From Anaerolineae bacterium (lineage in GTDB: Bacteria > Chloroflexota > Anaerolineae > JAADDB01): 61,063 nt of DNA. The stretch is from the NCBI GenBank assembly GCA_015486845.1, contig WFQU01000049.1:1-61063 (forward strand), read 5' to 3'. Each line of letters opens with the position of its first letter. The stretch's first letter is position 1. Below, in pieces: positions 1-60,190 of the stretch. The notes beneath the pieces are model-generated. The model ran no database searches. It had not been told where the DNA came from and saw only the letters and a list, made by a program, of their open reading frames with translations. Both the position numbers and the translations under genes were made by a program.

Positions 1-469
1 CTTGAAGAAGTTGAACTTCTGAAATAGGGCATCAGTGTTGATCGACGTTCTATTTTCCGGAGGAGAGGGTAGCCGAGGGCAATGCCCTCAGCCACCCTCC
101 AGAGAAGTTTATTTTCAGGGGAGAATCTGTCACTAATTTTTTGACTATTGTTTTTTATCTGCGTGCACAGCCTGCGTTGATCTGCGTCCCATTTTTATTT
201 TCAGGGGAGTTTGTCATTGCGAGGCCCGGCAGGGCCGTGGCAATCTTCCTCACTGGCGTTGGAGATTGCTTGACCCAAAAGAGGGTCATACTGTCGCTTC
301 GCTCGCAATGACACGACTGACTTGAAGGCGTTGTGTCAGCTATACTTAGGGGTGACCTCTCCCCTAAGCTGCGCTGCGCTTAGCTTTTTCCCCTCCCTGG
401 TACGGGGAGGGGAAGGCTTGTCACCCTTTTGGGCGGTAAGCCAGGGGAGAGGTCTTATTTTCAGGGGAG
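1..469. repeat. Mosaic intergenic repeat array (hairpin modules joined by TATTTTCARRGGAG)
   Basis: Junction motif at 51-65, 110-123, 196-209, 341-354 (degenerate) and 456-469; modules recur at about 24000-24075, 16642-16741, 32572-32828 and 60965-61035. Confidence 0.9.
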
Positions 470-10142: not shown

Positions 10143-10766
10143 TTATATTTTTCCGGCGACCTCCTGGTCTAACCGTTGGAAGAATGCCACCATATAACGG
10201 TGGCGCTCTTCAGCAATGTGACGGGCAATGTCAGTATACAAACGATCTTTAACCCTGCGGAGCTTGAAAACGAATTCGTGCACCGGGGTATACGCGATGG
10301 CTGTTGGTGTTGCTTCTGCCTCGGCCTGCGCTACCGGAACAGTCCACAGCGGCGAACCGTGTTCCCCGGCATAGACAAAGGCGCGGGCAATACCGATGGC
10401 GCCGATTGCATCCAGGTTATCCGCGTCGCTGAGGCATTTCGCTTCCAAAGTGGCTGGCTCCGGTGGATAACGGAAGCGGTGTGCTACAATGCAGTGAGAA
10501 ACCGCTGTCACGAACGCTTCCGGTTCCCCTGCTAACAATTCTGTCGCCAACCGGGCACCGACAAGGTGATGACGGGCCCTGTCGACACCAACACCGACAT
10601 CGTGCAATAGCGCAGCCGTCCGCACGACGGATACATCAGCACCTTCAGCTTCAGCAATGCGCTCTGCCAAGCGCAATACGCGCAAAACGTGGCTGAAATC
10701 GTGCGCTGCGCCGTGTTCACCGTAAAGCAGCCGCGCCTTTTCAACAGTTAATTCCATGCTTCTCAC
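10143..10766 (-). CDS. HD-domain phosphohydrolase
   Basis: [32 protein letters not shown]. Confidence 0.9.
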
Positions 10767-13267
10767 CGAATGATACTTTCGATTTTCTGCTGGAATGTAT
10801 AGAGCAGATTCTTGACATCTTCCTCATTATCCCCTTCGACATCAATGTGGAATACGGCTTTATCCGCATCTGGCCGCATCAACACCCAGCGCCGGCCGCC
10901 TAAGAAAACTTTGACGCCGTCCAATGTCTGCACGTTGTCGCTTTTGTAGGTCTCGTTCAACACGCGCATGACCTTGCCTTTATGCGCCCAGGGCGTATCT
11001 ACCTGCACGCTGCCGACCCAATGGGGTGGCAAGGTGTCCCGCACATCGTGTAGCGTCGTTTGCTGCACGGCCATAGTTTCTAACAACTGCGCTAAAGCCA
11101 TCATACCATCCACTGCAGGGTGGAATTCTGGTACAACGAAATTGCCGCGGCCATCCATCGCCAGTATTACATCCGGTTCTTGCGATTGGCCCATCAAATC
11201 GTGCAAATCGTATTTACAGCGTATAACGCTGCCGCCGTAACGCTGAGCGATTTCGTCTAAAGCAGTGGGCATTGTTACTGTGGCCACCAGTCGTTTGCCC
11301 GGATGTGACCGCATGATGAGCTCAGCCAGCACTAAGGCTGTTTCCATTGAAGAGAGCGGCTGCCCATCTTTGCAAACGATGAAAAGCTTTTCGCCGCTCA
11401 CATCCAGTTTCGCGCCAAAGGAAACATCCTGCAATACTTTCGTGATAGCGCCTAGTTGGTATAGCCCCGCCTGAAACTGTTCTTCTAGAACAGCTAATTT
11501 GGTTTCGGAGGGGTGGGCGTTTAGAGGTACTTGCTCTACCGCCAGACTTTGTAACAGGGCCGGCAAGATGCTGCTACTGGTACCATAGCTGTAATCTACC
11601 ACTACTTTATATTTTCTATTCACGATGGCATCATTGTTTACCGCAGCTAGAAAATCTTTCTCATAATGGGAAAGCACGCCTGGCGCGTATTCGATAAGAC
11701 CAATCTCGTCCATATACGCCCGTCGGAAATCCTCACGAAAATAAATGCGCTCGATTTTGCGTTCCACTGCATTGCTCAAGTCTAAACCGGAGCCGTTGAA
11801 AATGTGAATATCCACCACGCGTTGATCAAAAGGAGATAGCCGCACATTAATGCCGGCGACTGCTTCGGTTTGACGGGTATAGTAACGCGCCACTGGCCCG
11901 GGTACGCTGGCTAAATCCCAAACGTTCACGCCGGCGGCCGGTAGGCCGGCAATAATAGCTCGTTTCAACATGCGCGAGCTGCGGTGCACATCCCGATTAA
12001 TGGTAACCCATGATCCTTTTGGGAAGTGGGCGCCCACTGCAGCGCCAACTTTGGCCGCCATCTCCGGTGTTAAATCTACGTTGACTACGCCGCTAATCCC
12101 AAACCGACCAAAAAGCGTGCGCCGCACCCGGCTGCCCCAAATTATACTCTCATGAACTTGCGCTCCGCTTTCCACCTCTTTTTTGGGCCAAAGACGCACA
12201 TTCTCGTAAATGATGGCATTCTCGTGAATGATGGAGCCATCCGCGACCACACTGCCATCGTGGAGCATTGCCTTGGACTTAATCGAACACCCCCGCCCAA
12301 CAATGGTGCCCGATAGCTGTACATCCTCACCGATGTAGCACCCTCGCCAAAGAATAGAGTGCGTCACCTCTACGCGCGAGTCGATGATTGTGTCATTGCG
12401 GATAACCGTTGGTCCATCGATGTGGACGCCTCCTTTGATGCGTACTCCCGGGCCTAAATAGATGGGGCCTTTGAGGATGGCGTCCGGGGCAATTTCTACG
12501 TCGTCGCTGCCTAACCATACATTGTCGCCCCAGTGCCGGCCCAGCGGTTCTAAATTCACCCGTCCTGACAACAAATCGCCCGTAGCACGCACGTATTCGT
12601 TGATATTGCCGACATCGGTCCAATAACCATTAGCCACGAAGCCGTACATGCTGCCCGGTTGCGAAAGAAATTGCGGGAAAATGTCATTGCTCCAATCCAC
12701 CGGTTTCCCCGGCTTGATCAAATCCAGTACTTCCGGCTCGATCACGTAAATGCCGGTGTTCACTTGATCCGAGATCACCTCACTCCAGCCGGGCTTCTCT
12801 AAAAACTGCGTAATCTGGCCCGCATCATCGGTGATCACTACACCATATTCCAGCGGCGTTGGCACGCGATATAGCGTTAGCGTCACTTTAGCTTTTTTTT
12901 CTTTGTGGAAGGCGATAATTTGGCCTAAGTTAAAATCGGTCAAAGCATCGCCGCTAATTACCAAAAAAGTATCATCCTGCAATAACGACGCGGCGTTTTT
13001 GACACTACCGGCTGTTCCTAACGGCGTCTCTTCTACAGCGTACTGAATGTTCATACCCCAAGCACTGCCATCACCGAAAAAGTCATGGATCATATCGGCC
13101 ATGTACATGGTTGTCATTACCACATCCGTAATGCCATATCGCTTCAACAAGTCGAGGATATGTGAAATCATCGGTTTGTTCACCATGGGCACCATGGGCT
13201 TTGGCCGATCTTTCGTCAGCGGACGCAGTCGTGAACCTTCTCCTCCCGCCATCACCACAGCCTTCAT
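10763..13267 (-). CDS. Mannose-1-phosphate guanylyltransferase with phosphomannomutase-like C-terminal half
   Basis: [25 protein letters not shown], hexapeptide repeats, then a PMM/PGM-type region (LFGRFGISG). Confidence 0.9.
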
Positions 13268-13411
13268 TGTTAGCCTCCCTTATTTTAGTAACCTATCACA
13301 TGAAAAGCGCACAAACTCATCAGCATAACAACAGGAATATGGACAATTTAACTATATTCTACTACAATTTCACTCTATCAATATTGAGCTATCCAGCAAA
13401 GGAGTTATATC

Positions 13412-14362
13412 ATGGAAACAGTAAAATATTGTCCTATTTGTGGACAGCGCTTGGAAATGCGCATGATGAGCGATCGAGTACGGCCGGTCTGTCCGAACTG
13501 CGGTTTTGTTTATTACATGAATCCGGCTGTTGCCGCCGGCACACTGGTAGAGGAAGATGGCAAAGTCCTCCTTATTCGTCGCGGTGTTGAACCACGCAAA
13601 GGCTATTGGGCCTTGCCTGCTGGTTACGTGGAAGCCGACGAAAGTGCCGAAGAAGCAGCCGTCCGCGAGACTAAGGAAGAAACCAATGTCCCGGTTGAAC
13701 TCGATGAACTTCTGGGTGTTTATTCTTTTGGACAATCAGTCGGTGATCGCGGTGTGCTCATCTTATACAGTGCTCACGCCACGCCGAATGCCCAGCCGCC
13801 TCATCCCAGCGACGACGCTACCGAAGCACGGTTTTTTGCTCCGGCGGAGCTTCCCCCTAATGAGAATCTGGCTTTTGATAGCCACAGATCTGCTTTAGCA
13901 GAGTGGCGCCGCGCTCGAGCCGTCTCCTATCGCATCGCTGTCTCAGAAGATAAACAAGCCATTTTTACTTTAGCACAGCAATTTAAAGAGCCTATGTTTC
14001 GGTCGTCGCTCTCTGACAGTAATGGCTGTCAGTTCATTTTAGCTTGGGATGTCAATCAATTAGTCGGGTTTGCCAGTCTGAGCTTGCACCCTATTTCGGG
14101 CGATGTGCGGCTCAATCAGGTTTTCGTGGTGCCAAGCCATCGTCGTTGGGGGATTGGGAGCCACTTAATACAACATGCTATTGATCATGTTCGCACCGTT
14201 GGGAAAAACCGCCTTTTCGCTGAAATCCCGACTAGTAATACCGGCCTGGTCGTTTACATCAAGAGTGGTTTTCAGGTTTCAGGCTTCATGAACCAGGCAT
14301 CACCCCATCGCTATCCCGAAAACCAGCCAGTGCTCTTTCTTACTTATAATGTAAGCAAATAA
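13412..14362 (+). CDS. Zn-ribbon/NUDIX hydrolase fused to GNAT acetyltransferase
   Basis: CPICG..CPNC, Nudix box GYVEADESAEEAAVRETKEET, GNAT motif A VVPSHRRWGIGSHLI. Confidence 0.85.
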   Translation: METVKYCPICGQRLEMRMMSDRVRPVCPNCGFVYYMNPAVAAGTLVEEDGKVLLIRRGVEPRKGYWALPAGYVEADESAEEAAVRETKEETNVPVELDELLGVYSFGQSVGDRGVLILYSAHATPNAQPPHPSDDATEARFFAPAELPPNENLAFDSHRSALAEWRRARAVSYRIAVSEDKQAIFTLAQQFKEPMFRSSLSDSNGCQFILAWDVNQLVGFASLSLHPISGDVRLNQVFVVPSHRRWGIGSHLIQHAIDHVRTVGKNRLFAEIPTSNTGLVVYIKSGFQVSGFMNQASPHRYPENQPVLFLTYNVSK

Positions 14363-14384
14363 TTTCGCTTGACGGGACTGGAAC

Positions 14385-14500
14385 TAAAAAGCTTGACGCC
14401 AAGGCGCAGAGATGAAGTTTATTTCAAGGAAGTTGGGGACAGGCGTAAGAGCGTAACGTGTGTGGTCCCTACAGGACGACTATCTATTCCTGATTCCTAA
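14385..14500. repeat. Degenerate repeat modules with junction TTTATTTCAAGGAAG
   Basis: TTGACGCC..AAGGCGCAGAG resembles 30394-30430 and 32521-32559; junction-like motif at about 14418-14432. Confidence 0.55.
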
Positions 14501-14792
14501 CCTCCGCTCTTTTTCTCCCCGTCTACCGCGTTTCTGTGCAAGATCTTGGTCTTGCACAGAAGAATTTCACTAGAAAGATACTATATTATAGCACAACTTC
14601 CTATTAACATTAAAGAATGCGTAACGGTAACTAACAATTCCAAAGGCCCTGTATCTGGCGAAAAGGCGTTTTGTATTCCACCCAGGGGGTGCTATACTTC
14701 CTTGTTCATACCAAACAAGCTAAACTTGGCATGAGCAAGTGTGAAAAACAACTGTCTGTTCTACTAAGGAACAGAGTTAATGAGGTGAATGT

Positions 14793-16277
14793 GTGTTATT
14801 ATTACCCATTCTATATGCCATTGCTAGCTATAGCTTAGCGCTGTATGGATTACAGGCGTTGCTGCTGACAATGTTCTATATTTGGAAAGAAGTGACGAGG
14901 GTCGAGCCATTAGTTGCGGTTCCCAAGGATTGTGAGTGGCCGATTCTCACGATTCAGTTACCCATTTACAACGAGAAGGCTGTGGTTGAACGCTTATTGT
15001 TTGCTGTAACCAGTTTAGACTATCCCCGGGCTCGGCTACAAATTCAGGTGCTGGATGATTCCGATGACGAAACGACACGTGTTTTGCAACAAGAAGTACT
15101 GTATTACCGGAAGCAAGGTTACTGGATTAATCTGATGCGTAGGCATGACCGGACAGGCTTCAAAGCGGGCGCATTAGCGACTGCTTTTGTCCAAGTCAAA
15201 GGAGACTTCATCGCCATCTTCGATGCCGACTTCGCACCGGCACCTGATTGGGCGCAAAAGAGCGTGTTAGCGCTTATTAAACATCCGGCCTGGGGGTTCG
15301 TGCAAACTCGCTGGGGCCACTTGAATGCGCCGGCTTCCTGGCTTACCCGAGCCCAGGCCATCGCTCTGGATGGCCATTTTGTCGTCGAGCAGGGCGCCCG
15401 GTCCGCTTTCGGCTTGCCGTTTGGCTTCAACGGTAGCGGCGGTATTTGGCGGCGGCAGACCATCGAGGACGCCGGCGGTTGGCAAGCCGACACGTTATGT
15501 GAAGATTTAGACCTGAGCTATCGTGCCCAATTGCGAGGTTGGCAGGGTGGTTATCTGCCTGATGTCGTTGCGCCGGCGGAGCTGCCACCATCCATGAGTG
15601 CCTGGAAACAACAACAATTTCGTTGGGCCAAAGGCTCGGTACAGGTTATGCGCAAAGTCGGTGGCGACATTCTGCGGGAAAAAAGCTGGTCATGGACGGT
15701 GAAAATAGCGGCATTCTGGCATTTGAGCGGCTATATCTCACATTTGTTCTTGCTCTTGCTTTTAGCGCTACTCTTGCCCATGATCCAATTCCACTTGCCT
15801 TGGGTGCCTTTTTTAGCGCCAATAGGCTTGTTGGGCTTCGGACCTATCCTACTTTATGTCGTTAGCCAGCAGCAGTTATATGACCAATGGCTTCGCCGCT
15901 TGCTTGCTCTGCCGTTTCTATTAGCTGTTGGCGTGGGTCTGGCTCTCAACAATAGCGTGGCTGTACTCGAGGGGATCATCGGGCAAGATTCCCCTTTCCG
16001 GCGTACCCCCAAGTATAATTTGTCTGGCGCTAACAATGGTTGGGTCGGTCGCGGTTATGCGCCGCCGGTGGATCCGCGCACGGGAGGGGAGCTTCTTTTA
16101 GCCGGTTACGCTTTAGTAACGTTATGGGCCGCCTGGCGAGCAGGAGACTGGCTACTCATGCCATTTATCAGTTTATTTGTGATCGGGTTTGCCTGGGTTG
16201 GGTGGCAATCGCTGCGTGAACGCCGTGTAGCCATTCGCTACACCCGCCAGGCTGCCGTACGCCGGTCGCTGTCGTGA
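14793..16277 (+). CDS. Membrane GT2 glycosyltransferase (cellulose-synthase-like)
   Basis: QVLDDS, GFKAGAL, IFDAD, CEDLD and QQFRW motifs; C-terminal TM helices. Confidence 0.92.
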   Translation: MLLLPILYAIASYSLALYGLQALLLTMFYIWKEVTRVEPLVAVPKDCEWPILTIQLPIYNEKAVVERLLFAVTSLDYPRARLQIQVLDDSDDETTRVLQQEVLYYRKQGYWINLMRRHDRTGFKAGALATAFVQVKGDFIAIFDADFAPAPDWAQKSVLALIKHPAWGFVQTRWGHLNAPASWLTRAQAIALDGHFVVEQGARSAFGLPFGFNGSGGIWRRQTIEDAGGWQADTLCEDLDLSYRAQLRGWQGGYLPDVVAPAELPPSMSAWKQQQFRWAKGSVQVMRKVGGDILREKSWSWTVKIAAFWHLSGYISHLFLLLLLALLLPMIQFHLPWVPFLAPIGLLGFGPILLYVVSQQQLYDQWLRRLLALPFLLAVGVGLALNNSVAVLEGIIGQDSPFRRTPKYNLSGANNGWVGRGYAPPVDPRTGGELLLAGYALVTLWAAWRAGDWLLMPFISLFVIGFAWVGWQSLRERRVAIRYTRQAAVRRSLS

Positions 16278-16280
16278 AAA

Positions 16281-16827
16281 GGTCTTATTTTCAGAGAGGA
16301 ATCGACCTGGGCCTGTGGCGCACCAAAGCGGATGAAAATTTACGACTGGCGTCAAGCGTTTAGGCAGCTTGGCAGCGTCAACACCGGCTAAAGCCTCGAC
16401 GCCGGTGTTGGGGAAAGTGCAGCGCTTCGCTAATAAAGATGTCATCAGGCTTATTTTTTCGCCATTATTTTTTATCTGCGTGCGCAGCCAGCGTTAATCT
16501 GCGTCCTATTTTATTTTCAAGGGAGTTATCATGGGCCTACGGCACACCACAGCGAATGAAAACCTACGGCTGGACTCGAGCCTTTAGGCGGTTTTGTAGC
16601 GTTACCCCCGGCTAAAGCCTCTACTCCGGCGCAATGGGAGCTATTTTCAGGGGAGAATCTGTTACTAATTTCTTGACCATTGTTTTTTTATCTGCGTGCG
16701 CAGCCAGCGTTAATCTGCGTCCTATTTTATTTTCAAGGGAGTTATCATGAGCCTACGGCACACCACAGCGAATGAAAATTAAGATCAGCGTGCATCAGCG
16801 TTAATCTGCGTTCTATTTTCAGAGGAG
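16281..16827 (+). repeat. Mosaic repeat array with three full bipartite sites and two half sites
   Basis: Full sites at 16286-16339, 16512-16562 and 16728-16779; half sites at 16642-16655 and 16814-16827; about 16462-16562 is nearly duplicated at 16678-16778. Confidence 0.92.
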
Positions 16828-16833
16828 ACAAAA

Positions 16834-17124
16834 ATGACGCGTATCGGCATTGGTATTGTGTTCATCATCATAGCCGGGTTTTATCCGTTTGCGGCCATGC
16901 TCCGGCTAAACAAACGGTTGGGCCGGCCGGATGGCCCAGGTCGTAACGAATTGATCGCACTCATGGTGATGCACAGCGCGTTGCCATTCGCCCTTGCTCT
17001 CATCGGTATGGGCGTGATGATCCATCGCCTGTATATCGCCCCGGCCTACCGGATCAGTGTGCTTTTCTTGTTACTGCTGGCCGCCGCAGGCGGTGGCCTG
17101 AGCCGACGGTGGAAAAAACAATGA
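16834..17124 (+). CDS. Small hypothetical membrane protein
   Basis: Three hydrophobic segments, AGAGGAG SD, ATGA coupling to next gene. Confidence 0.7.
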   Translation: MTRIGIGIVFIIIAGFYPFAAMLRLNKRLGRPDGPGRNELIALMVMHSALPFALALIGMGVMIHRLYIAPAYRISVLFLLLLAAAGGGLSRRWKKQ

Positions 17125-18248
17125 TTCCGTCAGAACACGTCTGGCGCGTGGCCATTGTACACGACTGGCTCAATCAAATTGGCGGTGCGGAGTATGTTTT
17201 GGAAGTGCTCAAAGAGATATTTCCGGCTGCGCCGGTGTTCACCAGCATTTATGATCCCAAGCGGATGCCGGATGCTTACCGTCAATGGGAAATCCATACT
17301 TCGTGGTTGAACAAACTGCCGGGCATAGCAGCCCACCATCAATGGTACTTGTCCCTCTTCCCGTTGGCATTCGAGGAATTCGACTTCAGCGGCTTCGACT
17401 TAGTCATCAGTAACAAAAGTGCCTTCAGCCACAGCGTTATCACGCCGCCGGAGACAGAACATATTAGCTACTGTCTCACGCCGACCCGCTTCCTGTGGCA
17501 ATATCAAGCTTATCGACAACGGGAAGGATTAGGGCGCTTGGCTAACGCGCTTTTTAGGCGGACGCTGCACAACCAGCGCCAGTTTGACCGCTTAGCGGCT
17601 GACCGGGTCGATCATTTCATCGCTATTTCCCGGGCCGTACAAGCACGCATCCAAAAGTATTATCGCCGGGAAAGTGTGGTCATTTACCCGCCGGTGAACA
17701 CAGATGCTTTTCAGCCCACCGTTCATCCCAGCGCCGACTATTTCTTAGTCTCCTCACGGCTAATCCCATACAAACGGATCGACTTAGCCGTCCAGGCGTG
17801 CACGAACCTAAACCTACCACTGGTTGTGGCGGGAGAAGGGCGGGATAGTGCTTACTTGCGGCGCGTGGCCGGCCCGACGGTACGATTTCTTCCCCGGCAG
17901 CCGCTGGCCAAATTGCGCACACTCGTGCAAAATTGTCGTGCTTTCCTCTTCCCCGGCCTGGAAGATTTCGGAATCACGCCGGTGGAAGCGATGGCCGCCG
18001 GCCGGCCGGTGATCGCATTTGCCGGAGGTGGCGCGTTGGATACAATTGTAAATGGTGTTACTGGAGAGTTCTTCCACGAACCGACTGTGGAAAGTCTGGT
18101 GGACGTGCTACAATCTTTCGATCCGGCGGATTACGATCCGGCCGCCTGCCGGGCACAAGCTGAGCAATTCGCCAAGGAAAAGTTTCAAGCGAAACTGCTG
18201 ACTTTTATCAACGAAGTCATGGAACGCAGAGCGCAGCAAAGGAAATAA
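17121..18248 (+). CDS. GT4 glycosyltransferase
   Basis: VHDWLNQIGGAE, RLIPYKRID, EDFGITPVEAMAAGRPV. Confidence 0.92.
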   Translation: MIPSEHVWRVAIVHDWLNQIGGAEYVLEVLKEIFPAAPVFTSIYDPKRMPDAYRQWEIHTSWLNKLPGIAAHHQWYLSLFPLAFEEFDFSGFDLVISNKSAFSHSVITPPETEHISYCLTPTRFLWQYQAYRQREGLGRLANALFRRTLHNQRQFDRLAADRVDHFIAISRAVQARIQKYYRRESVVIYPPVNTDAFQPTVHPSADYFLVSSRLIPYKRIDLAVQACTNLNLPLVVAGEGRDSAYLRRVAGPTVRFLPRQPLAKLRTLVQNCRAFLFPGLEDFGITPVEAMAAGRPVIAFAGGGALDTIVNGVTGEFFHEPTVESLVDVLQSFDPADYDPAACRAQAEQFAKEKFQAKLLTFINEVMERRAQQRK

Positions 18249-23684: not shown

Positions 23685-24221
23685 CCTGAAAAACGAGAGC
23701 AGAAAAGGGGCCCCCTATCCCTCAACCTTGGGGGGGCAACACACCCCCAGAATTGGGGGCCGGGGGGCGCACGGAGCTCAAAGCTCCGTGCTACAGGGTA
23801 AGGAAGCCCGCTGAAGCGGGCTTAGGTTTTACGTAGCCCGGCGGCTTTCAGCCCCGGACAATGGGTGCGGCTGTCGCCAAGCCTTTAGGTGGGTTGGTGG
23901 GTCTACCACTGGCTAAAGCCTCGATGCCGGTACGTTAATTGATTTTGAGAAAACTATTTTCGTATTGCTGGCCTAATGTATTTGAGATCAGCGTGTATCA
24001 ACGTTGATCAGCGTTCTGTTTTCCGGAGGAAAGGGTAGCCGAAGGCATTGCCTTCGGCTACCCTCCAGAGAAGTTTATTTTCAAAGGAGTCGGCATGAGC
24101 CTACGGCACACCACAGCGGATGAAAATCTACGACTGGCGTCGAGCCTTTAGGCGGCTTGGTAGCGTCAACACCGGCTAAAGCCTCCACTCCGGTACCGTG
24201 GCGTTCTATTTTCAAGAGGAG
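23685..24221 (+). repeat. Mosaic repeat array
   Basis: CCCCCAGAATTGGGGG, GCACGGAGCT-CAA-AGCTCCGTGC, AAGCCCGCT-GA-AGCGGGCTT and GGCTAAAGCC (x2) modules; full site 24076-24127, terminal half site 24207-24221. Confidence 0.9.
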
Positions 24222-24226
24222 TGACT

Positions 24227-26020
24227 ATGGAGTCAACAAACCTGTATCCGTTATATCGATATTTACAAGCTTATAATATTTCCCTGCCTTCATTCTCTCC
24301 GGACGGTCAACATGTGATTTTCCTGACCGACGTCACTGGCCTGCCGCAATTATGGGAATTGCCATTGCCAGGCGGCTGGCCCCGGCAACGCACTTTCGAG
24401 ATGGAAAGAATCGCTTTCGGCCAATACAGTCCCACGAGGACACAGTTGGTCTACGGCCAAGACGAAGGCGGCAATGAGAAGATGCAAATCTGGATGTTGG
24501 ATGCCGATGGACGCCAACGGCAGCTCACTAACGATCCCAACGCAATTCACCATTTCGGTGCTTGGTCACGCGACGGCCGGCAAATCGCTTTTTCCCACAA
24601 TGAGCGTAACGGCCGCGATTTCGATATCGCTGTCATGGATATCGCCACCGGTCAGCGCCGGGAAGTGTATCGGGGCGAGCGTCTCATGCTGCCTACGGAC
24701 TGGTCGCCGCACCAGCGCTATTTAGTGGTGCAACAGAACCATGTGCCTTTCAACCACGACCTCTACCTGCTCGATTTGGTAGATGGCCAGGCCCGGCAGC
24801 TCACGCCACATGACGGTGACGCCCGTTATTTGCACCCCACTTTCGCGCCGGATGGACATTCTCTCTACCTGATCAGCGATAAGGGTCGGGAATTCTTAAC
24901 GCCGGCCCGCCTGGACTTGCCGGATGGCGCATTACACTTTTTATTCGAGACAGATTGGGACGTGCCGGAAATGGTTGTCAGCCGGGATGGCATGTGGCTC
25001 GTTTATGTTATCAACGAGGATGGCACCTTCCGGCTGCACAGCCGGCATTTGGCTGACGGGCAGGAAAACATTGTTAATGACCTGCCGGCCGGCGTCATGA
25101 GCGGCTTAGCCTTTAGCCAGAACAACCGGCAAGTCGCATTCCAGCTAGACGGCCCCCAGAACCCACCCGATATCTGGCTATACGACGTACAAAGCGGTCA
25201 GACACGCCGGCTCACCCAAAATAGTCGGGGCGGCATCCCCGCCGAGGCGCTACAGGCGCCAACACTAATTCACTATCCCACTTTCGATGACCTCCAGATA
25301 CCCGCTTTTTTCTATCGGCCTAATAATGGCCCCGAACGACCACCTTGCATCGTCTATGTGCACGGTGGCCCGGAGAGCCAATTTCAGAACAAATACGAGC
25401 CGGTGTTGCAATACTTCGTGCAGCGCGGGTTTGCTGTTCTGGCCACCAATGTGCGCGGTTCCACCGGCTATGGCCGCACGTATACCCATTTGGACGACGT
25501 GGAAAAGCGGTTGGACAGCGTCGCTGATTTAGCCCACGCTGTTTATTGGCTGCGGCAACGTGGCGCCGTGCAACCAGATCGTATCGGCATCATGGGACGA
25601 AGCTATGGCGGCTTCATGGTTCTGGCCGCGGTGACGCACTATCCGGAGCTCTGGCAAGCTGCCGTGGACATCGTTGGTATCGCCAACATGGTTACTTTTC
25701 TGGAAAACACTAGCCCGTGGCGGCGTCACCTGCGTGAAGCAGAATATGGCAGCTTGGCCCACCATCGCGAACTTTTAGCGCGTATTTCGCCTATCCACAT
25801 GGTTGATCACATCACAGCCCCTATGTTAGTGATCCACAGCGATAACGATACTCGGGTGCCCATCGGCGAAGCGGAGCAGATCGTGGCTGCGCTTCGCGAT
25901 AGGCGACATCCGGTTGAATATCTTCACTATGCCAACGAGGGACACCAAATGGTGCATTTAGAGAACAAGATCGACGCGTATCGTCATACGGCTGATTTCT
26001 TGGCCAAATTTTTGGCGTGA
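24227..26020 (+). CDS. S9-family peptidase
   Basis: Propeller repeats (FSPDG, WSRDG), VHGGPE, NVRGSTGYG, GRSYGG, NDTRV, EGH. Confidence 0.93.
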   Translation: MESTNLYPLYRYLQAYNISLPSFSPDGQHVIFLTDVTGLPQLWELPLPGGWPRQRTFEMERIAFGQYSPTRTQLVYGQDEGGNEKMQIWMLDADGRQRQLTNDPNAIHHFGAWSRDGRQIAFSHNERNGRDFDIAVMDIATGQRREVYRGERLMLPTDWSPHQRYLVVQQNHVPFNHDLYLLDLVDGQARQLTPHDGDARYLHPTFAPDGHSLYLISDKGREFLTPARLDLPDGALHFLFETDWDVPEMVVSRDGMWLVYVINEDGTFRLHSRHLADGQENIVNDLPAGVMSGLAFSQNNRQVAFQLDGPQNPPDIWLYDVQSGQTRRLTQNSRGGIPAEALQAPTLIHYPTFDDLQIPAFFYRPNNGPERPPCIVYVHGGPESQFQNKYEPVLQYFVQRGFAVLATNVRGSTGYGRTYTHLDDVEKRLDSVADLAHAVYWLRQRGAVQPDRIGIMGRSYGGFMVLAAVTHYPELWQAAVDIVGIANMVTFLENTSPWRRHLREAEYGSLAHHRELLARISPIHMVDHITAPMLVIHSDNDTRVPIGEAEQIVAALRDRRHPVEYLHYANEGHQMVHLENKIDAYRHTADFLAKFLA

Positions 26021-26262
26021 AAAGCCGGCATGGGCCGGCGGCCTGCCTGTGCAGGCAACGCAGACAGGCGCACTACAGCGGATGAGAATCTCTTGATAAG
26101 ATTGGGGATAGCGGGCTTGAGAATTTTAGTGTTGTCGCCGTGAGCTTGTCTGAGCTTGATAGTAACCAATGTATGAGTCGGGTCTAAGAACAGGGCGCTT
26201 TGTATTGCCAGCGTAATATATTTTGAGATCAGCGTGCATCAGCGTTCCACTTTTTAAGGAGG
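26021..26262 (+). repeat. Repeat array starting with a right half site that carries a 27-nt hairpin insert
   Basis: CCGGCATGGGCC..[CCTGCCTGTGCAGGCAACGCAGACAGG]..CACTACAGCGGATGAGAAT; later parts resemble 59909-59933 and 23960-24000. Confidence 0.8.
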
Positions 26263-26269
26263 TAAGGCC

Positions 26270-27415
26270 ATGGATTTCGCGTTCAATGAAGAACAACAAT
26301 TTTTGCACGATACGTTACACGATTTTGTTGCAAAAGAGGTCAAGCCGCAAGCCCGGCACGTGGATGAAACAGGAGAATTCCCTTGGGACATAATCCAAAA
26401 ACTGGGTGCTATGGGCATGTTGGGGCTCAACATCCCGGAGGCATATGGTGGCGCCGGTGCCGATGAACTGAGTGTAGCTATTTTCTTAGAAGAATTGGGC
26501 CGGGGCTGCGGTTCCACCGGACTCATCAGCGAGGCCCATCTCTGTTTAGCTGCGGCAGCTATCAACCTTTTCGGAAGTGAAGCACAAAAGCAGCGCTATT
26601 TGACGCCGTTGGCCCGGGGCAAAGTGTTGGGCGCGTTGGGTTTGACCGAGCCCGGCACAGGCAGCGACTTGCAAGGTATCCGCACCACAGCCCGGCGGGA
26701 CGGCGACGAATGGATCATCAATGGCAGCAAAATGTGGATGACTAACGGCGGCGTAGCGGGAACGGCCGTGTTACTCTGCCGCACCAAAGCGGAGCGAAGT
26801 AGTCATAGCCTGAGCCAGTTCATTGTGCCCACCGATACCCCCGGCTTCCAAGCCGGGCCGCCGGAAAAGAAAATGGGGTTGCACGGCTGCTGGAGCCACG
26901 CGGTGAGTTTGGACGATGTGCGCGTGCCGTTAGACCATCTGCTGGGCGCAGAAGGGAAAGGGCTACAACAAACATTGGCTGTTCTGGACGGTGGGCGTAT
27001 CGGTATCGGGGCCCTCAGCGTCGGTCTGGGACAAGCAGCCTTGGAGGAAGCTATCGGCTATGCCAGGCAGCGGGAAACTTTCGGCCGCCCCATCGCTGAG
27101 CACCAGGCGATCCAGTTCAAATTGGCCGACATGGCCACGAAAGTGCACATTGCCCGGCAAGCGCTTTATTATGCCGCTTGGCGCAAAGAACAGGGATTAC
27201 CGTTCAGCAAAGAAGGCGCTATGGCCAAGCTCTTTGCCACAGAGATGGCTGAAGAAGTCGCCTACCAGGCCATCCAAATCCACGGCGGCTATGGCTACAG
27301 CCACGAATATCCGGTAGAACGCATTTACCGGGATGCCAGGCTGATGACTATCGGCGAGGGTACTAGCGAAGTGCAGCGGATGGTCATTGCTCGACGGATA
27401 ATCAAAGGCCGCTGA
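26270..27415 (+). CDS. Acyl-CoA dehydrogenase
   Basis: LTEPGTGSD, NGSKMWMTN, RETFGRPI, IHGGYGY, IGEGTSEVQR. Confidence 0.95.
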   Translation: MDFAFNEEQQFLHDTLHDFVAKEVKPQARHVDETGEFPWDIIQKLGAMGMLGLNIPEAYGGAGADELSVAIFLEELGRGCGSTGLISEAHLCLAAAAINLFGSEAQKQRYLTPLARGKVLGALGLTEPGTGSDLQGIRTTARRDGDEWIINGSKMWMTNGGVAGTAVLLCRTKAERSSHSLSQFIVPTDTPGFQAGPPEKKMGLHGCWSHAVSLDDVRVPLDHLLGAEGKGLQQTLAVLDGGRIGIGALSVGLGQAALEEAIGYARQRETFGRPIAEHQAIQFKLADMATKVHIARQALYYAAWRKEQGLPFSKEGAMAKLFATEMAEEVAYQAIQIHGGYGYSHEYPVERIYRDARLMTIGEGTSEVQRMVIARRIIKGR

Positions 27416-30156: not shown

Positions 30157-30261
30157 TTACTGTTCCATTTCTTTGAGCATGGCAGCGGTCTCGCCCAAAG
30201 TAGAGCCGGAAACCAGTTCCGATAGTGTTTCGGGATCGCCAAAATAGCCAATAGCTGCCAT
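30157..30261 (-). pseudogene. Possible nitroreductase C-terminal remnant
   Basis: AAIGYFGDPETL-SELV resembles the nitroreductase tail AIGYxGDPxxL...LSELV from recall; abuts a repeat junction. Confidence 0.35.
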
Positions 30262-30291
30262 GATGTACTGGTTTTCCTTCCTCTTGAGGTG

Positions 30292-30681
30292 CTTCTTTGA
30301 AAATAGAACGCTGATCAACGCTGATGCGCGCTGATACACGCTGATCGCAAATATATAACTCCAGCAATACGAAAATATTTTTCTCAAAATAAGTTGACGC
30401 AGCGGCGTAAAGGCGCAGAGCGTCTAAAAAACCAGGCTCCCTTTAAGAAGTTCAACTTCTTCAAGAAGTTGAACTTCTAATTGACAGAAAGGAACCGGCG
30501 TTGAGCAGCTTCTTGGCAGCGGGCGCTACCTTGATGTACCCCGCCGCCGCGCCGGCATTGATGCTTTAGCCAGTTGTAGACCCACCAATACGCCTAAAGG
30601 CTTGACGCCAGTCGCATCATTTTTAGCCGCTGTGGTGTGCCGCCCGCACAGGCAGTCTGCAGGCTCATGTCGACTCCAAGA
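30292..30681 (-). repeat. Mosaic repeat array (reverse orientation)
   Basis: Right half site 30620-30681 directly after the aminotransferase stop, GGCTAAAG module, double palindrome 30446-30478, terminal CTATTTTCAAAGAAG at 30292-30306. Confidence 0.88.
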
Positions 30682-31824
30682 CTAAGCCGCGGCGATAACC
30701 GCCAGCGTCCGGTCTATTTCCGCATGGCTATTGTAAAAGTGCGGCGAGACTCGAATGAAATTACCGCGTTGGGAAATAATAACACCTGCTGTAGAAAGCT
30801 TGGCTGCCAAAGCCGCAGGATCATCTTTCGGCACGAATGAAACAATGCCGGACCGTTCGGATTCGTGTTCGTGTGGTGAAATCACTGTCAAATCCAAGCG
30901 TTCTAGGCCGGTAAGTAGGTGCTCTGTTAATTCCAGCACCCGCCGGCTGATATCCTCCACACCCCAGTCTAAGAAGTGTTGTACGTTCTGGTTCAAGCCC
31001 AGCAGCATAAGTGGGGCAATGGATCCTTCTTCATAGCGGGTGGCATCGTGCCGAAAAGGAGAGTCATAGCGGAAAAAGTCACGCCAATCCTCTACGCCGA
31101 CCCAGCCTGTCATGATCAGGTCTAACTCGTCTAGTCGCTCCTGACGGATGTAAAGAAAGCCAAAGCCAACTGGTCCTAAAAGCCATTTGGCGCTTCCGGC
31201 CGATAGGAAATCTACCGGTGTTTGCTGCACATCCACAGGGAAGACGCCTAAGCCTTGGATGGCATCGACGCAGAAAAGCGCACCGCCCCGGTGCACGATA
31301 TCTGCTAAAGTATCCAAGTCGTTGCGATAGCCGGTTGCGAATTCGACAAAACTCAATGTCACTAAGCGCGTGCGGCTATCCATAGCTGCTGCAACGCTCT
31401 GCGGGAGGATACGGTTGTTTTCTGCTTTCACGAAGCGTACTTCCACGCCTTTGCGTCGCAAGTTTTCCCAGGGGTAGACGTTGGCCGGAAATTCGGTTTC
31501 GGCGCACACGACATTATCTCCGGCTTGCCATGGCAAGCCGGCCGCCACGATATTCAATCCATGGGACGTGTTACGGGTGAAGGTAACTTCTGTTTCTTGC
31601 CGAGCGTTGATGAGCCTGGCCACGTTGCCTCGGGTCGTTCCGTAAATCCGATCTTCCCATTCACCTTGTATGGCTAATCCTCCCGTCAGGCTGCGCGCAG
31701 CCAAAAAAGATTGCATCATCTGTGCTGTGCTGCGAGGCACGGGGCCAATGGAGGCATGATTAAGGTATGTGTAGCGCTCCGTTACGGGAAAATCTTGTCG
31801 AATGGCTTCCAAATTGTCCAACAT
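30682..31824 (-). CDS. Class V PLP aminotransferase (cysteine-desulfurase-like fold)
   Basis: YLNHASIGP, NTSHG, VDAIQ, SAKWLLGP (PLP Lys), RVSPHFYN; ATG 31824 follows AAGGAG. Confidence 0.9.
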   Translation of the reverse strand: MLDNLEAIRQDFPVTERYTYLNHASIGPVPRSTAQMMQSFLAARSLTGGLAIQGEWEDRIYGTTRGNVARLINARQETEVTFTRNTSHGLNIVAAGLPWQAGDNVVCAETEFPANVYPWENLRRKGVEVRFVKAENNRILPQSVAAAMDSRTRLVTLSFVEFATGYRNDLDTLADIVHRGGALFCVDAIQGLGVFPVDVQQTPVDFLSAGSAKWLLGPVGFGFLYIRQERLDELDLIMTGWVGVEDWRDFFRYDSPFRHDATRYEEGSIAPLMLLGLNQNVQHFLDWGVEDISRRVLELTEHLLTGLERLDLTVISPHEHESERSGIVSFVPKDDPAALAAKLSTAGVIISQRGNFIRVSPHFYNSHAEIDRTLAVIAAA

Positions 31825-32099
31825 GAATAACCTTCTCCTTTTTAGCTCATTTATGATACGGCTGTTGCCCGTCACGATAATGTGCACGCCGCCATCTCTT
31901 CTTAACGGTGCTACTTTCTGGTGTCGGTGTGATTTTTGCAGCGTTAGCGTCATGCAGGGTAAGGGGGAATATCGAAAAAATATTATGGCACGAGCTTGCG
32001 CCACTGGCAAACTTTGCTGTTCACATTCGATGCTACTGTCTCGAGGCTATCGCTATGCGCCGGGTCAAATTTGGAATGGCTGTTATAGCATCTGCTTGA

Positions 32100-32139
32100 T
32101 TGACAAGCTTTTCGATAACCGTTAGACTATGGTTATAAT
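32100..32139 (+). promoter_or_regulatory. Sigma70-type promoter
   Basis: TTGACA (32100-32105), 17 nt, TAGACT (32123-32128); also TATAAT at 32134-32139. Confidence 0.6.
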
Positions 32140-32140
32140 T

Positions 32141-32885
32141 AATTTTAGAGAAGTTGGCGTGGGCCTTCGGCCTGCCTGTGCGGGCACGCAGACAGGCGCG
32201 CCACAGCGGCTGAAAAACGCCCTTTATCCCCCAACCTTAGGGGGAGCAAAAGGTAGAAAGGAAAGGGAAAAGGGGTAGCAGACCTTCTTACTGTCCCGAT
32301 TATCTATTTTCTACCTCCCATCCTCCCCTTGCCAGCGCGGCGGCGGGGTGCGTCAAGGTAGCGTCCGCTGCCAAGGGGCTACTCAACACTAGCCCCCTTT
32401 TCTAAGTGGCTTATCATTTACGTAGCACGGAGCTCAAAGCTCCGTGCGCTCGGGCGGAGAACGCCGGCGATTAGAAGTTCAACTTCTTCAAGAAGTTGAA
32501 CTTCTTGAAGGAGGCCCGATTTTTTTAGACGCTATGCGCCTTGGCGACGCTGCGTCAACTGATTTTGAGGAGAGTTTGTCATTGCGAGACCCGGCAGGGC
32601 CATGGCAATCTTCCTCACTGGCGTTGGAGATTGCTTGACCAAAAAGAGGGTCACACTGTCGCTTCGCTCGCAATGACGCGACTGATTTGAAGGCGTTGCG
32701 TCAGCTATCTTTCAGGGGTGATCTTTCCCCCAAGCTGTGCTGCGCTTAGCTTTTTCCCCTCCCTGTATCGGGGAGAGAAGGCTTGTTACCTCTTTGGGAG
32801 GTAAGCCAGGGGAGAGGTCTTATTTTCAATAGAGGCCATTTTTTAACCATTGTTTTTTTATCTGTGTGCGCAGCCTGCGTCCCAT
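32141..32885 (+). repeat. Mosaic repeat array
   Basis: Site with 26-nt insert 32141-32216, palindromes 32425-32447 and 32473-32505, block 32572-32828 closely matching 207-463. Confidence 0.9.
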
Positions 32886-32951
32886 CGTTCTCTTTGGAGA
32901 GAGTACGAACAGCCAGTTTGCTCTCACAGAACTATCATCCACAGGGATCAT

Positions 32952-33752: not shown

Positions 33753-33855
33753 TAAAAAAGCAATGAGCCACCCTAACCTGGACGTCAGGATCAAAAGGGT
33801 TGCCCCCCATAATATCATGATAACATGCCTGGGAACATTAGAGAACATTGCTGAT

Positions 33856-33884
33856 TTGGCAAGGAAGAGGCTTGTCTATATAAT
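33856..33884 (+). promoter_or_regulatory. tRNA promoter
   Basis: TTGGCA, 17 nt, TATAAT, 12 nt upstream of the tRNA. Confidence 0.7.
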
Positions 33885-33896
33885 TACCGTTGTTTT

Positions 33897-33984
33897 GGAG
33901 AGGTCGCATAGTCTGGCCTAGTGCGCGCGCCTGGAGAGCGCGTAGGGTCTTTGGCCCTCGTGGGTTCGAATCCCACCCTCTCCG
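33897..33984 (+). tRNA. tRNA-Ser(GGA)
   Basis: Acceptor GGAGAGG/CCTCTCC, anticodon arm CGCGC-CTGGAGA-GCGCG, long variable arm, GGTTCGAATCC, G discriminator; CCA not encoded. Confidence 0.97.
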
Positions 33985-33988
33985 CTGA

Positions 33989-34024
33989 AAAAGAGTCCAT
34001 TCTGCTAAAAGAATGGACTCTTTT
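33989..34024. terminator. Intrinsic terminator (possibly bidirectional)
   Basis: AAAAGAGTCCATTCT / AGAATGGACTCTTTT perfect inverted repeat, 6-nt loop. Confidence 0.85.
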
Positions 34025-34039
34025 GGTTTAGGCTGTTTT

Positions 34040-34068
34040 TTGACAAAGCGATTGCTTTCGTGTATCAT
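34040..34068 (+). promoter_or_regulatory. SRP RNA promoter
   Basis: TTGACA, 17 nt, TATCAT, 6 nt before the RNA 5' end. Confidence 0.8.
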
Positions 34069-34074
34069 TTTCTC

Positions 34075-34342
34075 GGTCGTGCTAAGTGGGGAGCTAGCGG
34101 TGCCCTGTACCCGCAATCCGCTACAGCGGGACTGAATTCCTTGCTGAGGGTTATGGCAGGCAGTTACGGCTGGTTTAAGCGGCGTTGATGGCTGGGTCCT
34201 GCGCGGCGAGAAGCTGCAAACCTGGTCAGGTCCGGAAGGAAGCAGCCATAAGTAGCCTCTCTCGGGTGACGTGGGAGTGCCTGGCCTGAGTTGGCTGAAC
34301 AAGCCGCCTGACTTGTTCTTTCTCGAAGTGAGGTGCACGACC
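34075..34342 (+). ncRNA. ffs: Large bacterial SRP RNA (Alu-domain type)
   Basis: Helix 8 GTCAGGTCCGGAAGGAAGCAGC, 5' GGGGAGCTAGCGGTGCCCTGTACCCGCAATCCGCT, terminal pairing GGTCGTGC/GCACGACC. Confidence 0.95.
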
Positions 34343-34519: not shown

Positions 34520-34722
34520 GTCATTGCGAGCCCCCGTAGGGGGAGCGAAGCAATCTCTAATGCCAATGAGGAAGATTGCCACGGCCCTGTTGGGCCTCGC
34601 AATGACAAACTCTGAAAATCGTCCCCCCGGCCCCCAATTCTGGGGGTGTGTTGCTCCCACCAAAGTTGGGGGATAGGGGGCGTTTTCATCCGCTGTGGTG
34701 CGCCATAGGCCCATGTCGGTTC
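34520..34722 (-). repeat. Mosaic repeat array (reverse) overlapping the epimerase 3' end
   Basis: Right half site 34683-34722, CCCCCAATTCTGGGGG module, GATTTTCAGAG junction, GTCATTGCGAG...CTCGCAATGAC module 34520-34606. Confidence 0.88.
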
Positions 34723-43559: not shown

Positions 43560-44040
43560 ATGTCTTGGCTTTCGCTGCTTTGTGTGAGAAAATTTTTCCT
43601 CTGTCCTATTTCAGAAGTTCAACTTCTTCAAGAAGTTGAACTTCTAATCAATGGTCCGGCGATTAGAAATCGCTGCTACAACTGCGAAACCTGCCTGCGC
43701 AGGTTACATGCTAATCGCCGTAGGGCGATTTTGCAGATGTTGCCGTGACTTTTAGTCGCTGGGCCCGGAGTAATCGTCCCCCCGGGCCCCCAAGAAAGAT
43801 GATACACGCTGATACACGCTGATCTAAGTTGAACGAATACTAATAAATATGCTAAGATTGACAGTCTGTGGTTAATGCGTTGTCAGGTATTATGTACGGG
43901 TCTTGGCGCTGTGATAAAGTAATGGGTTGATTATCTTTACGTTTTGTACAACCGATTGAATCTTCTCAATAACTTGGGGAACGCTCCTGGGCCCCCAATT
44001 CTGGGGGAGCATATCCCCTAAAGTTGGGAAAAAAGGGGGC
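43560..44040. repeat. Mosaic repeat array between divergent genes
   Basis: CTATTTCAGAAG junction into double palindrome 43613-43645, GCGATTAGAAATCGC module (39 nt identical to 61025-61063), GATACACGCT x2, CCCCCAATTCTGGGGG. Confidence 0.82.
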
Positions 44041-59835: not shown

Positions 59836-60190
59836 CTGTTTTTTTGAAGTCGCTATGAGCATGCGGGCGGCGCACCACGGCGGATGAAAATGCTCTCTGT
59901 CCCTGTGGATTGGGGGGATAGCAGGCTTGAGAAGTAAACCTACGTTGATAGGAATGGCGTTAGTTGGTGACGGCTGGTAATCTGTTTAGTTTTCTTTCTT
60001 GGGAACTAACGCCCGAATCCCGTACCTGAAAAGAGGGGCAGGCCACTGAGGGTATTTTATCCTGTAGGCCTCCTGCAAGTCATTGACCACAGCGCTGTTC
60101 ATCTCGTCTGCCGGATTGTGGTTTTGTGTTCGTTAGAACCGGGCAGTAAGGTACGTTTTTGGGGTTTTTTAGACGCTTTGCGCCTCTACT
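59836..60190. repeat. Degenerate repeat array starting with a right half site
   Basis: GAAGTCGCTATGAGC..GGCGCACCACGGCGGATGAAAAT (59846-59891); TTTTTTAGACGCT matches 32521. Confidence 0.7.

Follow-up and report, generated by a model that had tools for sequence, protein, structure and literature searches.

Polar mosaic repeats with a Shine–Dalgarno-bearing end occupy intergenic gaps in an uncultured Anaerolineae bacterium

How does a gap of more than half a kilobase between two genes come to be filled with sequences that recur throughout the same genome, and does anything move them? The gap in question (16278-16833) lies in a window of 61,063 nt, the whole stretch of DNA analyzed here, which is contig C49 of a 3.28-Mb metagenome-assembled genome (MAG) of 182 contigs from an Anaerolineae bacterium. 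It is bordered by a family-2 glycosyltransferase (GT2) gene on one side and by a 96-aa ORF and a family-4 glycosyltransferase gene on the other. The sequencing runs containing this stretch are hydrothermal-vent and marine-sediment metagenomes, with no RNA run among those listed. The initial annotation of the gap, made from the sequence, had proposed a cassette-integration system in which a ~52-bp bipartite site, folded into an inner hairpin, strings together gene-less hairpin modules that are reshuffled by a recombinase encoded outside the window.

We found that every part of the gap (16280-16837) is a module with 30-300 copies elsewhere in the genome. When repeats were defined as 12-mers with a copy number of at least eight in the 3.28-Mb genome, they covered 314,635 bases, or 9.6% of it. 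Seed-and-extend produced ~30 consensus pieces, which were reduced to a library of 27 modules, and genes were called by a crude longest-ORF heuristic.

J and A at the 52-bp site

The right core of the proposed site, GGCRCACCACAGCGRA, has 10 matches in the window at up to two mismatches, where 0.08 are expected: 16317, 16541, 16757, 24105, 26067, 26778, 30626(-), 32195, 34689(-), and 59869. The one at 26778 sits in an acyl-CoA dehydrogenase ORF and looks like a chance match. The left half, TATTTTCARRGGAG, also has 10 matches at up to one mismatch, against 0.03 expected, three of which lie in complete sites and seven of which stand on their own (110, 196, 456, 16642, 16814, 30292(-), and 60966(-)). 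The sites are therefore real, and right-core matches fit the complete sites that had been placed at 16286, 16512, 16728, 24076, and 32141, as well as the right-half sites at 26021, 30620(-), 34683(-), and 59846. The inverted TTTTCA...TGAAAA ends are present, and the integron cores GTTRRRY/RYYYAAC are absent from the site sequence, both as originally described. Two details needed adjusting: at 32141 only the right half holds, the left half being degenerate and the site carrying a ~26-nt insert, and the "more than ten" left-half-only positions were a slight overcount, the seven strict ones being joined by ~3 looser ones.

We will refer to the left half as J and to the right half as A. Genome-wide, the A core has 331-381 copies depending on stringency, and J has 450 copies at up to one mismatch and 673 at up to two. 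At least five module families (D, E, H, K, and R17) share J (TATTTTCARRGGAG) as their 3' end, and J itself terminates in GGAG. A consists of an optional TTTTCA, RRGGAG, 5 nt, ATG-RGCC, then a loop of 3 nt or, in the long form, an insert of ~26 nt (CCTGCCTGTGCGGGCACGCAGACAGG), and finally GGCRCACCACAGCGGMTGAAAA, giving the consensus GGAG-TYRKC-ATG-RGCC, loop or insert, GGCRCACCACAGCGGMTGAAAA. Copies anchored on the core display a sharp 3' boundary after TGAAAAT, a strongly conserved core of 22-23 nt, and a more variable left side.

According to the module annotation, the sequence upstream of A is J in 135 of 355 copies and unique in 202. Conversely, what lies downstream of the 673 J copies is unique sequence in 427 and A in 135, while upstream of J we found D (181), E (107), H (70), R17 (60), K (57), B (26), or P2 (25). 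Non-repeat sequence occurs 3' of A in only 14 of 347 copies, and several of these 14 sequences recur as low-copy modules in a MAG of a different genus of the same family (G004, which is 'Anaerolineae bacterium S014_12', as the match positions coincide; hereafter the sister genome). These neighbor counts identify J as a shared 3' end and A as a separate head module. The 52-bp "site" is thus not one bipartite element but the seam between two independent high-copy repeats, J and A.

With this distinction, the whole gap can be read on the plus strand. Site copy 1 (16286..16338), which begins 8 nt past the GT2 stop codon (16275-16277), is a degenerate J (TATTTTCAGAGAGG) joined to a short A head (core 16317-16332) that ends in TGAAAA. 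It is followed by module B (16341..16407), a long imperfect hairpin with ~130-170 genome copies, by a low-copy filler with 28-43 blast matches (16408..16452), and by module D (16453..16511), a periodic repeat of the ATCTGCGT type that ends in CCTATTTT and has ~260 copies. Site copy 2 (16512..16562) comprises a J (16512-16525) and a short A (core 16541-16556), after which come a second copy of B with a tail (CAATGGGAGC; 16563..16641) and a J (16642-16655) leading into Dx and D modules (16642..16727). Site copy 3 (16728..16778), again a J (16728-16741) with a short A (core 16757-16772), precedes module E (16779..16813), made of three ATCWGCGT repeats at 10-nt spacing, and the island closes with a terminal J (16814..16827). 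The 96-aa ORF starts with an ATG at 16834, and the GGAG of this J, 6 nt upstream, is hence its Shine–Dalgarno sequence.

Elsewhere in the window the two repeats occur together or apart. Site copy 4 is a J with a short A (24076-24126) followed by module B (24076..24196, plus strand), and a J-like TATTTTCAAGAGGAG at 24212 lies upstream of an S9 peptidase gene. A long A without J, followed by module T (26029..26088, plus strand), is found right behind the stop codon of that gene (TGA, 26018-26020). Another long A without J (30620..30677, minus strand) lies 5 nt past the stop of a minus-strand aminotransferase gene, with B, C2, FF, and R17 on its 3' side on that strand. At 32141..32216 (plus strand), a long A with a degenerate J (AATTTTAGAGAAG) is followed by module P; at 34683..34715 (minus strand), a short A is followed by P and P2, its own TGA (34686-34688) providing the stop of a crude ORF (34686-35708, minus strand); and at 59846..59890 (plus strand), behind a gene ending at 59820, an A with a degenerate head is followed by T. 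Finally, a J that ends module K (456..469, plus strand) lies 5 nt upstream of the in-frame GTG (475) of a long ORF, and further J copies are at 110-123 and 196-209 (plus strand).

Reads were compared as Logan contigs of four runs, which break inside repeats, and the junctions listed from these contigs look like other genomic copies. Contigs of a strain from a second study, X2, span 30456-31215 and 31267-32213, so X2 shares those parts of the island there. Neither circles nor empty or filled alleles at the strain level were seen in these contigs.

Translation signals, order, and polarity

Among the 450 strict copies of J, 137 precede the start codon of an ORF of at least 80 aa by 2-12 nt, and 115 run into A. 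The 40 nt upstream are filled by repeat sequence in 128 of these 137 copies. As for J copies before non-repeat sequence, 177 of 309 open an ORF of at least 60 aa from a position 2-14 nt ahead of its start codon, with a modal spacing of 6 nt, compared to 731 of 2987 for random GGAG controls. These findings show that J often serves as the Shine–Dalgarno sequence of the gene that follows. Within the window, this applies to the ORFs starting at 475 and 16834, and probably also to the one starting at 24227.

The modules between A and J, which belong to ~25 families, were initially described as recurring in different orders. The module next to A on its 3' side is B (104), E (69), P (55), or T (38). 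B leads to C2 in 105 of 170 cases, C2 to C3 in 159 of 186, and C3 to the FF palindrome in 167 of 209; D and E lead to J in 181 of 262 and 107 of 192 cases, respectively. The resulting chain runs from A through B, C2, C3, and the FF palindrome to R17 or D and then to J. P is followed by P2 and then by J or an inverted Q, and J itself by a gene start, by A, or by Dx-D. Module order is a constrained grammar genome-wide, not a free one. The J variants obey a comparable linkage: the J upstream of A is CAAGGGAG in 42 of 80 cases, and the first J downstream of an A head is CAGAGGAG in 61 of 80. J variants track the neighboring module, which indicates that copying involves whole blocks, e.g., the composite D-J-A-E-J, and points away from exchange at the seam.

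The repeats are also oriented relative to genes. Between co-directional genes, A copies with the orientation of the genes outnumber those with the opposite one by 109 to 20. Convergent gaps hold 24 A copies, which have no start codon downstream, and these count against the main reading proposed below.

The hairpins invoked by the initial annotation were examined by folding. The short site folds no better than its shuffles (z = 0.39, 1.01, and -0.09), so its supposed inner hairpin has no extra stability, while folding is moderate for the long A (z = -1.46) and for module B (-26 kcal/mol, z = -1.32). The description of the modules as hairpins is apt for B, but not for D and E, which are ATCWGCGT repeats with a 10-nt period. 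Even in B there are no compensatory changes among 112 distinct copies, where alifold leaves a 7-bp stem with 0 double-change cells. When searched against Rfam 15 at the gathering threshold, the window returned SRP RNA and tRNA only; there was no meaningful match in 16200-16900 at E values up to 10 and none in 30250-32900 at E values up to 1. We detected 0 promoter-like or terminator-like sites in 16200-16900, which means that the island must be read through.

None of the modules (30-130 nt) is an ORF-bearing cassette, and in this respect the cassettes are gene-less as first described. A survey of the frames opened by the ATG of A in 350 heads gave ORFs of 11 aa in 67 and of 18 aa in 60, and the few long frames appear to be fortuitous or to extend into a neighboring gene. 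We rejected the idea that A encodes a small peptide: with a 26-nt length difference between the short and long forms, no reading frame is maintained, and the common peptide variants differ by amino acid changes, neither frames nor variants being conserved. An overlap of TGAAAA with upstream stop codons was discarded as well, since it was seen in 12 of 149 repeat-followed cases, compared to 32 of 2011 unique-followed ones, and these are mostly ORFs running into A.

Turnover at orthologous gaps and candidate enzymes

A contig of the sister genome (in L013) is syntenic with positions 10152-18095 of the window. At the studied gap it has TCGTAGGAGGCTTTACCCATG, a 15-nt gap in which the GT2 gene ends ...TCG TAG and its stop overlaps the Shine–Dalgarno sequence of the small ORF. 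In the source genome, an island of ~556 nt stretches from the GT2 stop to the start of the ORF, ending in TATTTTCAGAGGAG-ACAAAA-ATG. We compared 33 orthologous junctions between the two genomes, and both filled and empty alleles, which had been put forward as informative, were found: 18 junctions are module-free in both, 6 have modules in the source genome alone, 7 have them in the sister genome alone (a class that is inflated because its loci were fetched via an A-core match), 2 are filled in both with different content, and 0 have the same content. These findings show that elements are gained or lost at orthologous gaps. The modules themselves are 86-98% identical between the two genomes, and the flanking proteins 58-88%.

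Filled gaps typically extend from a few nucleotides past the upstream stop, where the A head is often decayed, to a J at a distance of 4-8 nt from the start codon. In two insertions of the sister genome, the unique left flank ends in (A)AGGGAG or GAGGAG, which places a GGAG on both sides. There is no sign of a duplication beyond GGAG: the preceding dinucleotide is the same on both sides of 7 of 37 units, where 8.7 would be expected. The ends of the A...J units are not inverted copies of each other, and their middles are bounded by a TGAAAAT/ATTTTCA pair of 7-8 nt. At one locus (L033), the 26-nt insert is tandemly duplicated.

We then looked at distribution in a sample of 401 genomes from the class, which holds >60 families. 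The A core (up to one mismatch) is present in five of them: the source genome (265 copies), the sister genome (51), G074 (7), and two with a single match each, whereas a reversed-pattern control gave 0 matches across all 401. Exact copies of J number 22 in the sister genome, 40 in G074, and 0 in G001-G003, and neither J nor A is present in 3 to 7 same-family genomes lacking the system. No A-core match (0) was found in viral contigs, and one scan for metagenome loci with the S9 peptidase found none. Named MAGs with the same repeat are labeled Anaerolineae or Chloroflexota, and in three Chloroflexota ones (CAYPUV, DUEH, and JAGVTM) the modules downstream of A are lineage-specific and likewise end in CTATTTTCARGGAG ahead of gene starts. 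Such conserved ends around variable middles may correspond to the cis-acting ends of non-autonomous elements.

A recombinase acting on the site had been placed outside the window, and one enzyme family does use the left half. An IS110-family element of 1864 bp (C2:152-2015), whose gene matches PF02371 with 27.2 bits (cut-off 21.3), is inserted inside J, with TATTTTCAGAG at its left junction and GAGGAG at its right one and without evident duplication. The same left junction recurs at two more loci, in the sister genome (L026, behind module E, and C233, with a different flank), and the right junction is also found on C141 of the source genome and at L040, where the IS end has 3 mismatches. Overall, the left junction is seen at three loci and the right one at two, plus one with the 3 mismatches. 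This shows that J is the integration point of an IS110-family element in two genomes. The IS110-family protein is 93% identical between the source and sister genomes, well above the housekeeping proteins, which suggests a recent transfer. With this query, it was not found in G074, which has 40 exact J and 7 A copies. Searches of the element found neither a bridge nor a seek RNA, and its non-coding regions contain no guide-like match to target or donor beyond chance. Its ends (TATCCGG... and ...CTTATAC) differ from the unit ends.

No recombinase gene was seen to adjoin the arrays, and none of the other enzymes considered is connected to them. Between an A and a J, there is no recombinase or transposase gene. 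Correlating the site with genes for tyrosine recombinases, serine recombinases, or HUH enzymes had been suggested as a check. Eight of nine matches to tyrosine recombinases (PF00589) were examined, together with four DDE matches, and none is linked to A...J units. The FF palindrome, which has ~280 loci, borders both PF01797 (Y1) genes (C99:6781-7116 and C73:8267-8521), neither of which is flanked by A or J; FF is hence a REP/REPIN-like family associated with a RAYT-like gene. The genome has no match to reverse transcriptase (PF00078) or TnpB (PF07282). The 19 genes with an A on both sides all look ordinary from their first residues and include no candidate enzyme. A GIY-YIG (Ssn-like) origin of the GTCATTGCGAG repeats was rejected, as the sole small GIY-YIG gene is not flanked by those repeats. 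No parent IS with the same ends was found in this 98%-complete MAG; multi-copy ISs are often missing from MAGs.

Explanations and known relatives

The reading that we favor, and to which we give about an even chance, is that A and J delimit polar mosaic repeats that are non-autonomous and form a NIME/BIME-like family. A unit would consist of an A head, a variable middle in constrained order, and a J tail; it would be co-oriented with genes, spanning the region from the upstream stop codon to the next Shine–Dalgarno sequence. Units may stand head to tail, in which case the seams from J to A would be what was originally read as the complete site. Such units would be non-autonomous mobile DNA of the NIME/BIME/REPIN kind, which a putative enzyme provided in trans could insert beside a GGAG, and homologous recombination between shared modules may mix them further. 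At least three families share a nearly identical A core of 22 nt, which is equally compatible with selection for a cellular function.

It appears doubtful to us that a dedicated, non-integron site-specific recombinase integrates, stacks, and reshuffles gene-less circular cassettes at the seam of J and A. Each circle would carry J plus A as an attP-like site, the chromosomal Shine–Dalgarno-proximal GGAG being attB-like. Serial integration predicts what is seen, namely 1) right halves only at array starts, 2) complete sites at inner seams, and 3) left halves only at ends, and the model also accommodates the GGAG common to both junction types and the islands present or absent at orthologous gaps. 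That an IS110-family site-specific recombinase uses J is in its favor, and there is a precedent in ISPpu9, which is described in a recent preprint as forming minicircles of a gene-less module alone (10.1101/2025.01.17.633520). The model fits poorly with the constrained order, with J variants that travel with neighboring modules, and with A being nearly always fused to its downstream module. The missing recombinase gene beside the arrays, IS ends that are not unit ends, the lack of a simple guide-like match in the non-coding regions of the IS, and the failure to find the IS110 gene in G074, which has J, weigh against it too. Of the cassette integration first proposed, the mosaic, the seam pattern, the turnover, and the use of J by an IS110-family element stand; no dedicated enzyme and no free shuffling were found, nor any circles in the contigs compared.

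A bolder version, which we regard as improbable, is that A...J units are excised as circles by an RNA-guided IS110-type recombinase or a relative, are integrated at the Shine–Dalgarno-proximal J/GGAG seam, and move between Anaerolineae lineages. If true, this would be a natural "modular transposition" that, for hundreds of genes, rewrites both the intercistronic region and the ribosome-binding site.

We also deem it unlikely that the units are selected RNA-level intercistronic elements, acting in mRNA processing, mRNA stability, or translation start, and spread by recombination or gene conversion. The strong co-orientation with genes, the use of J as a Shine–Dalgarno sequence at a modal spacing of 6 nt, and the conservation of the A core and J across families would all follow from it, as would an island that is placed inside an operon whose sister-genus counterpart is compact, and that is read through for want of promoter- or terminator-like sites. 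Yet there is no Rfam match, the short A folds no better than shuffles, and module B shows no compensatory changes in its 112 distinct copies. Distribution is patchy, with A in 5 of 401 genomes of the class and neither J nor A in 3 to 7 same-family genomes lacking the system, and every shared orthologous gap has different content in the two genomes. The last explanation, old immobile remnants whose mosaic arose by unequal or homologous recombination, slippage, and deletion only, is very unlikely. It would explain the constrained order, composite copying, many degenerate heads at array starts, and the tandemly doubled 26-nt insert of L033, but these are outweighed by orthologous sites that are filled in one genome and compact and empty in the other, whichever genome is taken first, by copies that keep 86-98% identity between genera whose proteins share 58-88%, and by hundreds of dispersed loci.

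Compared with known systems, the arrays are less like an integron than like the mosaics of repeats in Neisseria and E. coli. An integron has an attI platform with an adjacent IntI, attC hairpins, and cassettes that usually contain one ORF. The likeness consists of direct repeats of a site that bound modules and of stacked arrays; here, there are hundreds of dispersed loci instead of one platform, no integrase beside the arrays, modules without ORFs, and a site without GTTRRRY cores. The small dispersed repeats of cyanobacteria described by Elhai et al. in 2008 are reportedly very short and nested, and nesting of short repeats is also seen here, e.g., in the 26-nt insert inside A. For the A...J units, neither the terminal inverted repeats nor the target-site duplication of MITEs was found. 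REPs and BIMEs are high-copy intergenic repeats combined into mosaics, and REPs flank RAYT genes. Our repeats are similarly intergenic high-copy mosaics, and FF flanks both PF01797 genes, but A and J are not palindromes of 20-40 nt and do not flank RAYT-like genes.

The integration of an IS at one exact position of a high-copy repeat is shared with IS110/IS1111 elements (ISPpu9, ISPpu10, ISPa11, and IS621), and insertion of IS110-family elements into REP repeats is known (PMC1525189). While those elements target a REP hairpin, the target here is a repeat end that bears a Shine–Dalgarno sequence. The closest architecture is that of the NIME arrays of Neisseria, in which dRS3 repeats (ATTCCC-N8-GGGAAT) flank RS elements, as described in a 2007 paper (PMC1797815). 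In that paper and in a later one, the conserved repeat separates many families of gene-less 50-150-bp repeats in intergenic arrays that vary between genomes, dRS3 is targeted for integration by a transposase-like recombinase, and a site-specific recombinase acting on the repeat is hypothesized (PMC1797815, PMC11893778). In the same way, a short repeat with inverted ends (TTTTCA...TGAAAA) here separates ~27 gene-less module families in arrays, and the connector is targeted by the recombinase of a mobile element, of the IS110 family, at J. What differs is the connector sequence (TATTTTCARRGGAG plus the A core), which is unrelated to dRS3, its two-part nature, the gene-linked polarity, the role of J as a Shine–Dalgarno sequence, the constrained order, and the host, an uncultured Chloroflexota of the class Anaerolineae. 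According to the 2007 paper, no NIME arrays had been seen outside Neisseria (PMC1797815), and our search of the literature returned no report of such repeats in Anaerolineae or Chloroflexi.

Taken together, these findings would extend to Chloroflexota a NIME-type architecture that had been described in 2007 as confined to Neisseria. In practical terms, the repeats break metagenome assemblies, no gene being called between A and the downstream contig end in 91 of 347 A copies, and create spurious small ORFs. About a tenth of this small genome of a free-living bacterium is made of ~25 short repeat families with strict polarity and order. Between two genera, the turnover of the elements has been complete, although their sequences are nearly identical. 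Some 170 genes draw their ribosome-binding site from a repeat end, and the system would be a natural case of mobile repeats fused with translation signals, one end of which is a landing site for an IS110-family element.

Mobile-element genes associated with the repeats

The FF palindrome (AGAAGTTCAACTTCTTGAAGAAGTTGAACTTCT) occurs at approximately 280 loci in the genome under study (G000), including positions 1-20, 30442-30481, 32469-32526 and 43609-43648 of the window. Both copies of the Y1_Tnp gene (PF01797) in this genome, which lie on the minus strand at C99:6781-7116 and C73:8267-8521, are flanked by FF, and one of the two carries an in-frame TAG. FF and the PF01797 gene thus look like a REP/REPIN family with its own RAYT.

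J, the short repeat ending in GGAG that forms the common 3' end of several module families, is the exact insertion point of an IS110-family element, which interrupts it internally. The element or its insertion loci were found in G000 (C2:152-2015 and C141:115) and in G004, a different genus of the same family (C233, locus L063, and L026:2396). The IS110-family protein is 93% identical between the two genera, whereas housekeeping proteins of the same pair show 58-88% identity. Locus L026 also contains a gene-less piece of ~190 nt, with the end of this IS at its start.

A longer repeat family (R25/R20/R27), at least 293 nt in length with ~30 copies genome-wide and GGGGAACCGTACGGTTCCCC at its start or end, may be a larger nonautonomous element or an IS end. 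A further type, GTCATTGCGAG...GCAATC...CTCGCAATGAC, is found in the window at 197-352, 32562-32717 and 34520-34620; its 12-mer CTCGCAATGACA has 95 copies. Small GIY-YIG Ssn nucleases have associated hairpin repeats (PMC11893778), to which this type is similar in outline, but the flanks of the sole small GIY-YIG gene (C75:6714-6929) are devoid of it.

Substructure of the modules

The ~26-nt insert (CCTGCCTGTGCGRGCACGCAGACAGG) distinguishing the long form of the head repeat A is tandemly doubled in G004 (L033:2110-2200) and therefore acts as a small separate unit nested in A. Modules E and D contain ATCWGCGT runs immediately 5' of J (16779-16813, 30301-30345 and 43803-43823), spaced by ~10 nt, or one helical turn, which could be iterated protein-binding sites.

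Repeats, neighboring genes and contig ends

Between two of its repeat islands, the window holds a tRNA at 33897-33984 and, at 34077-34340, an SRP RNA of the large bacterial type. The heuristic ORF overlying them, 33838-34338 on the minus strand, was rejected as spurious. Genome-wide, no gene call precedes the contig end on the downstream side of 91 of 347 A copies, versus 30 on the upstream side; A-type repeats appear to break the assembly.

An A-core match with two mismatches within an acyl-CoA dehydrogenase ORF (26778-26793) is probably due to chance. Several ORFs extend into an A copy and terminate at its own TGA, as at 34686-34715 on the minus strand and likewise on C68, C69, C153 and other contigs, and TGAAAA is the stop context in 12 of the 149 repeat-followed stops. 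A may have supplied the stop codon of such genes, or replaced their 3' end.
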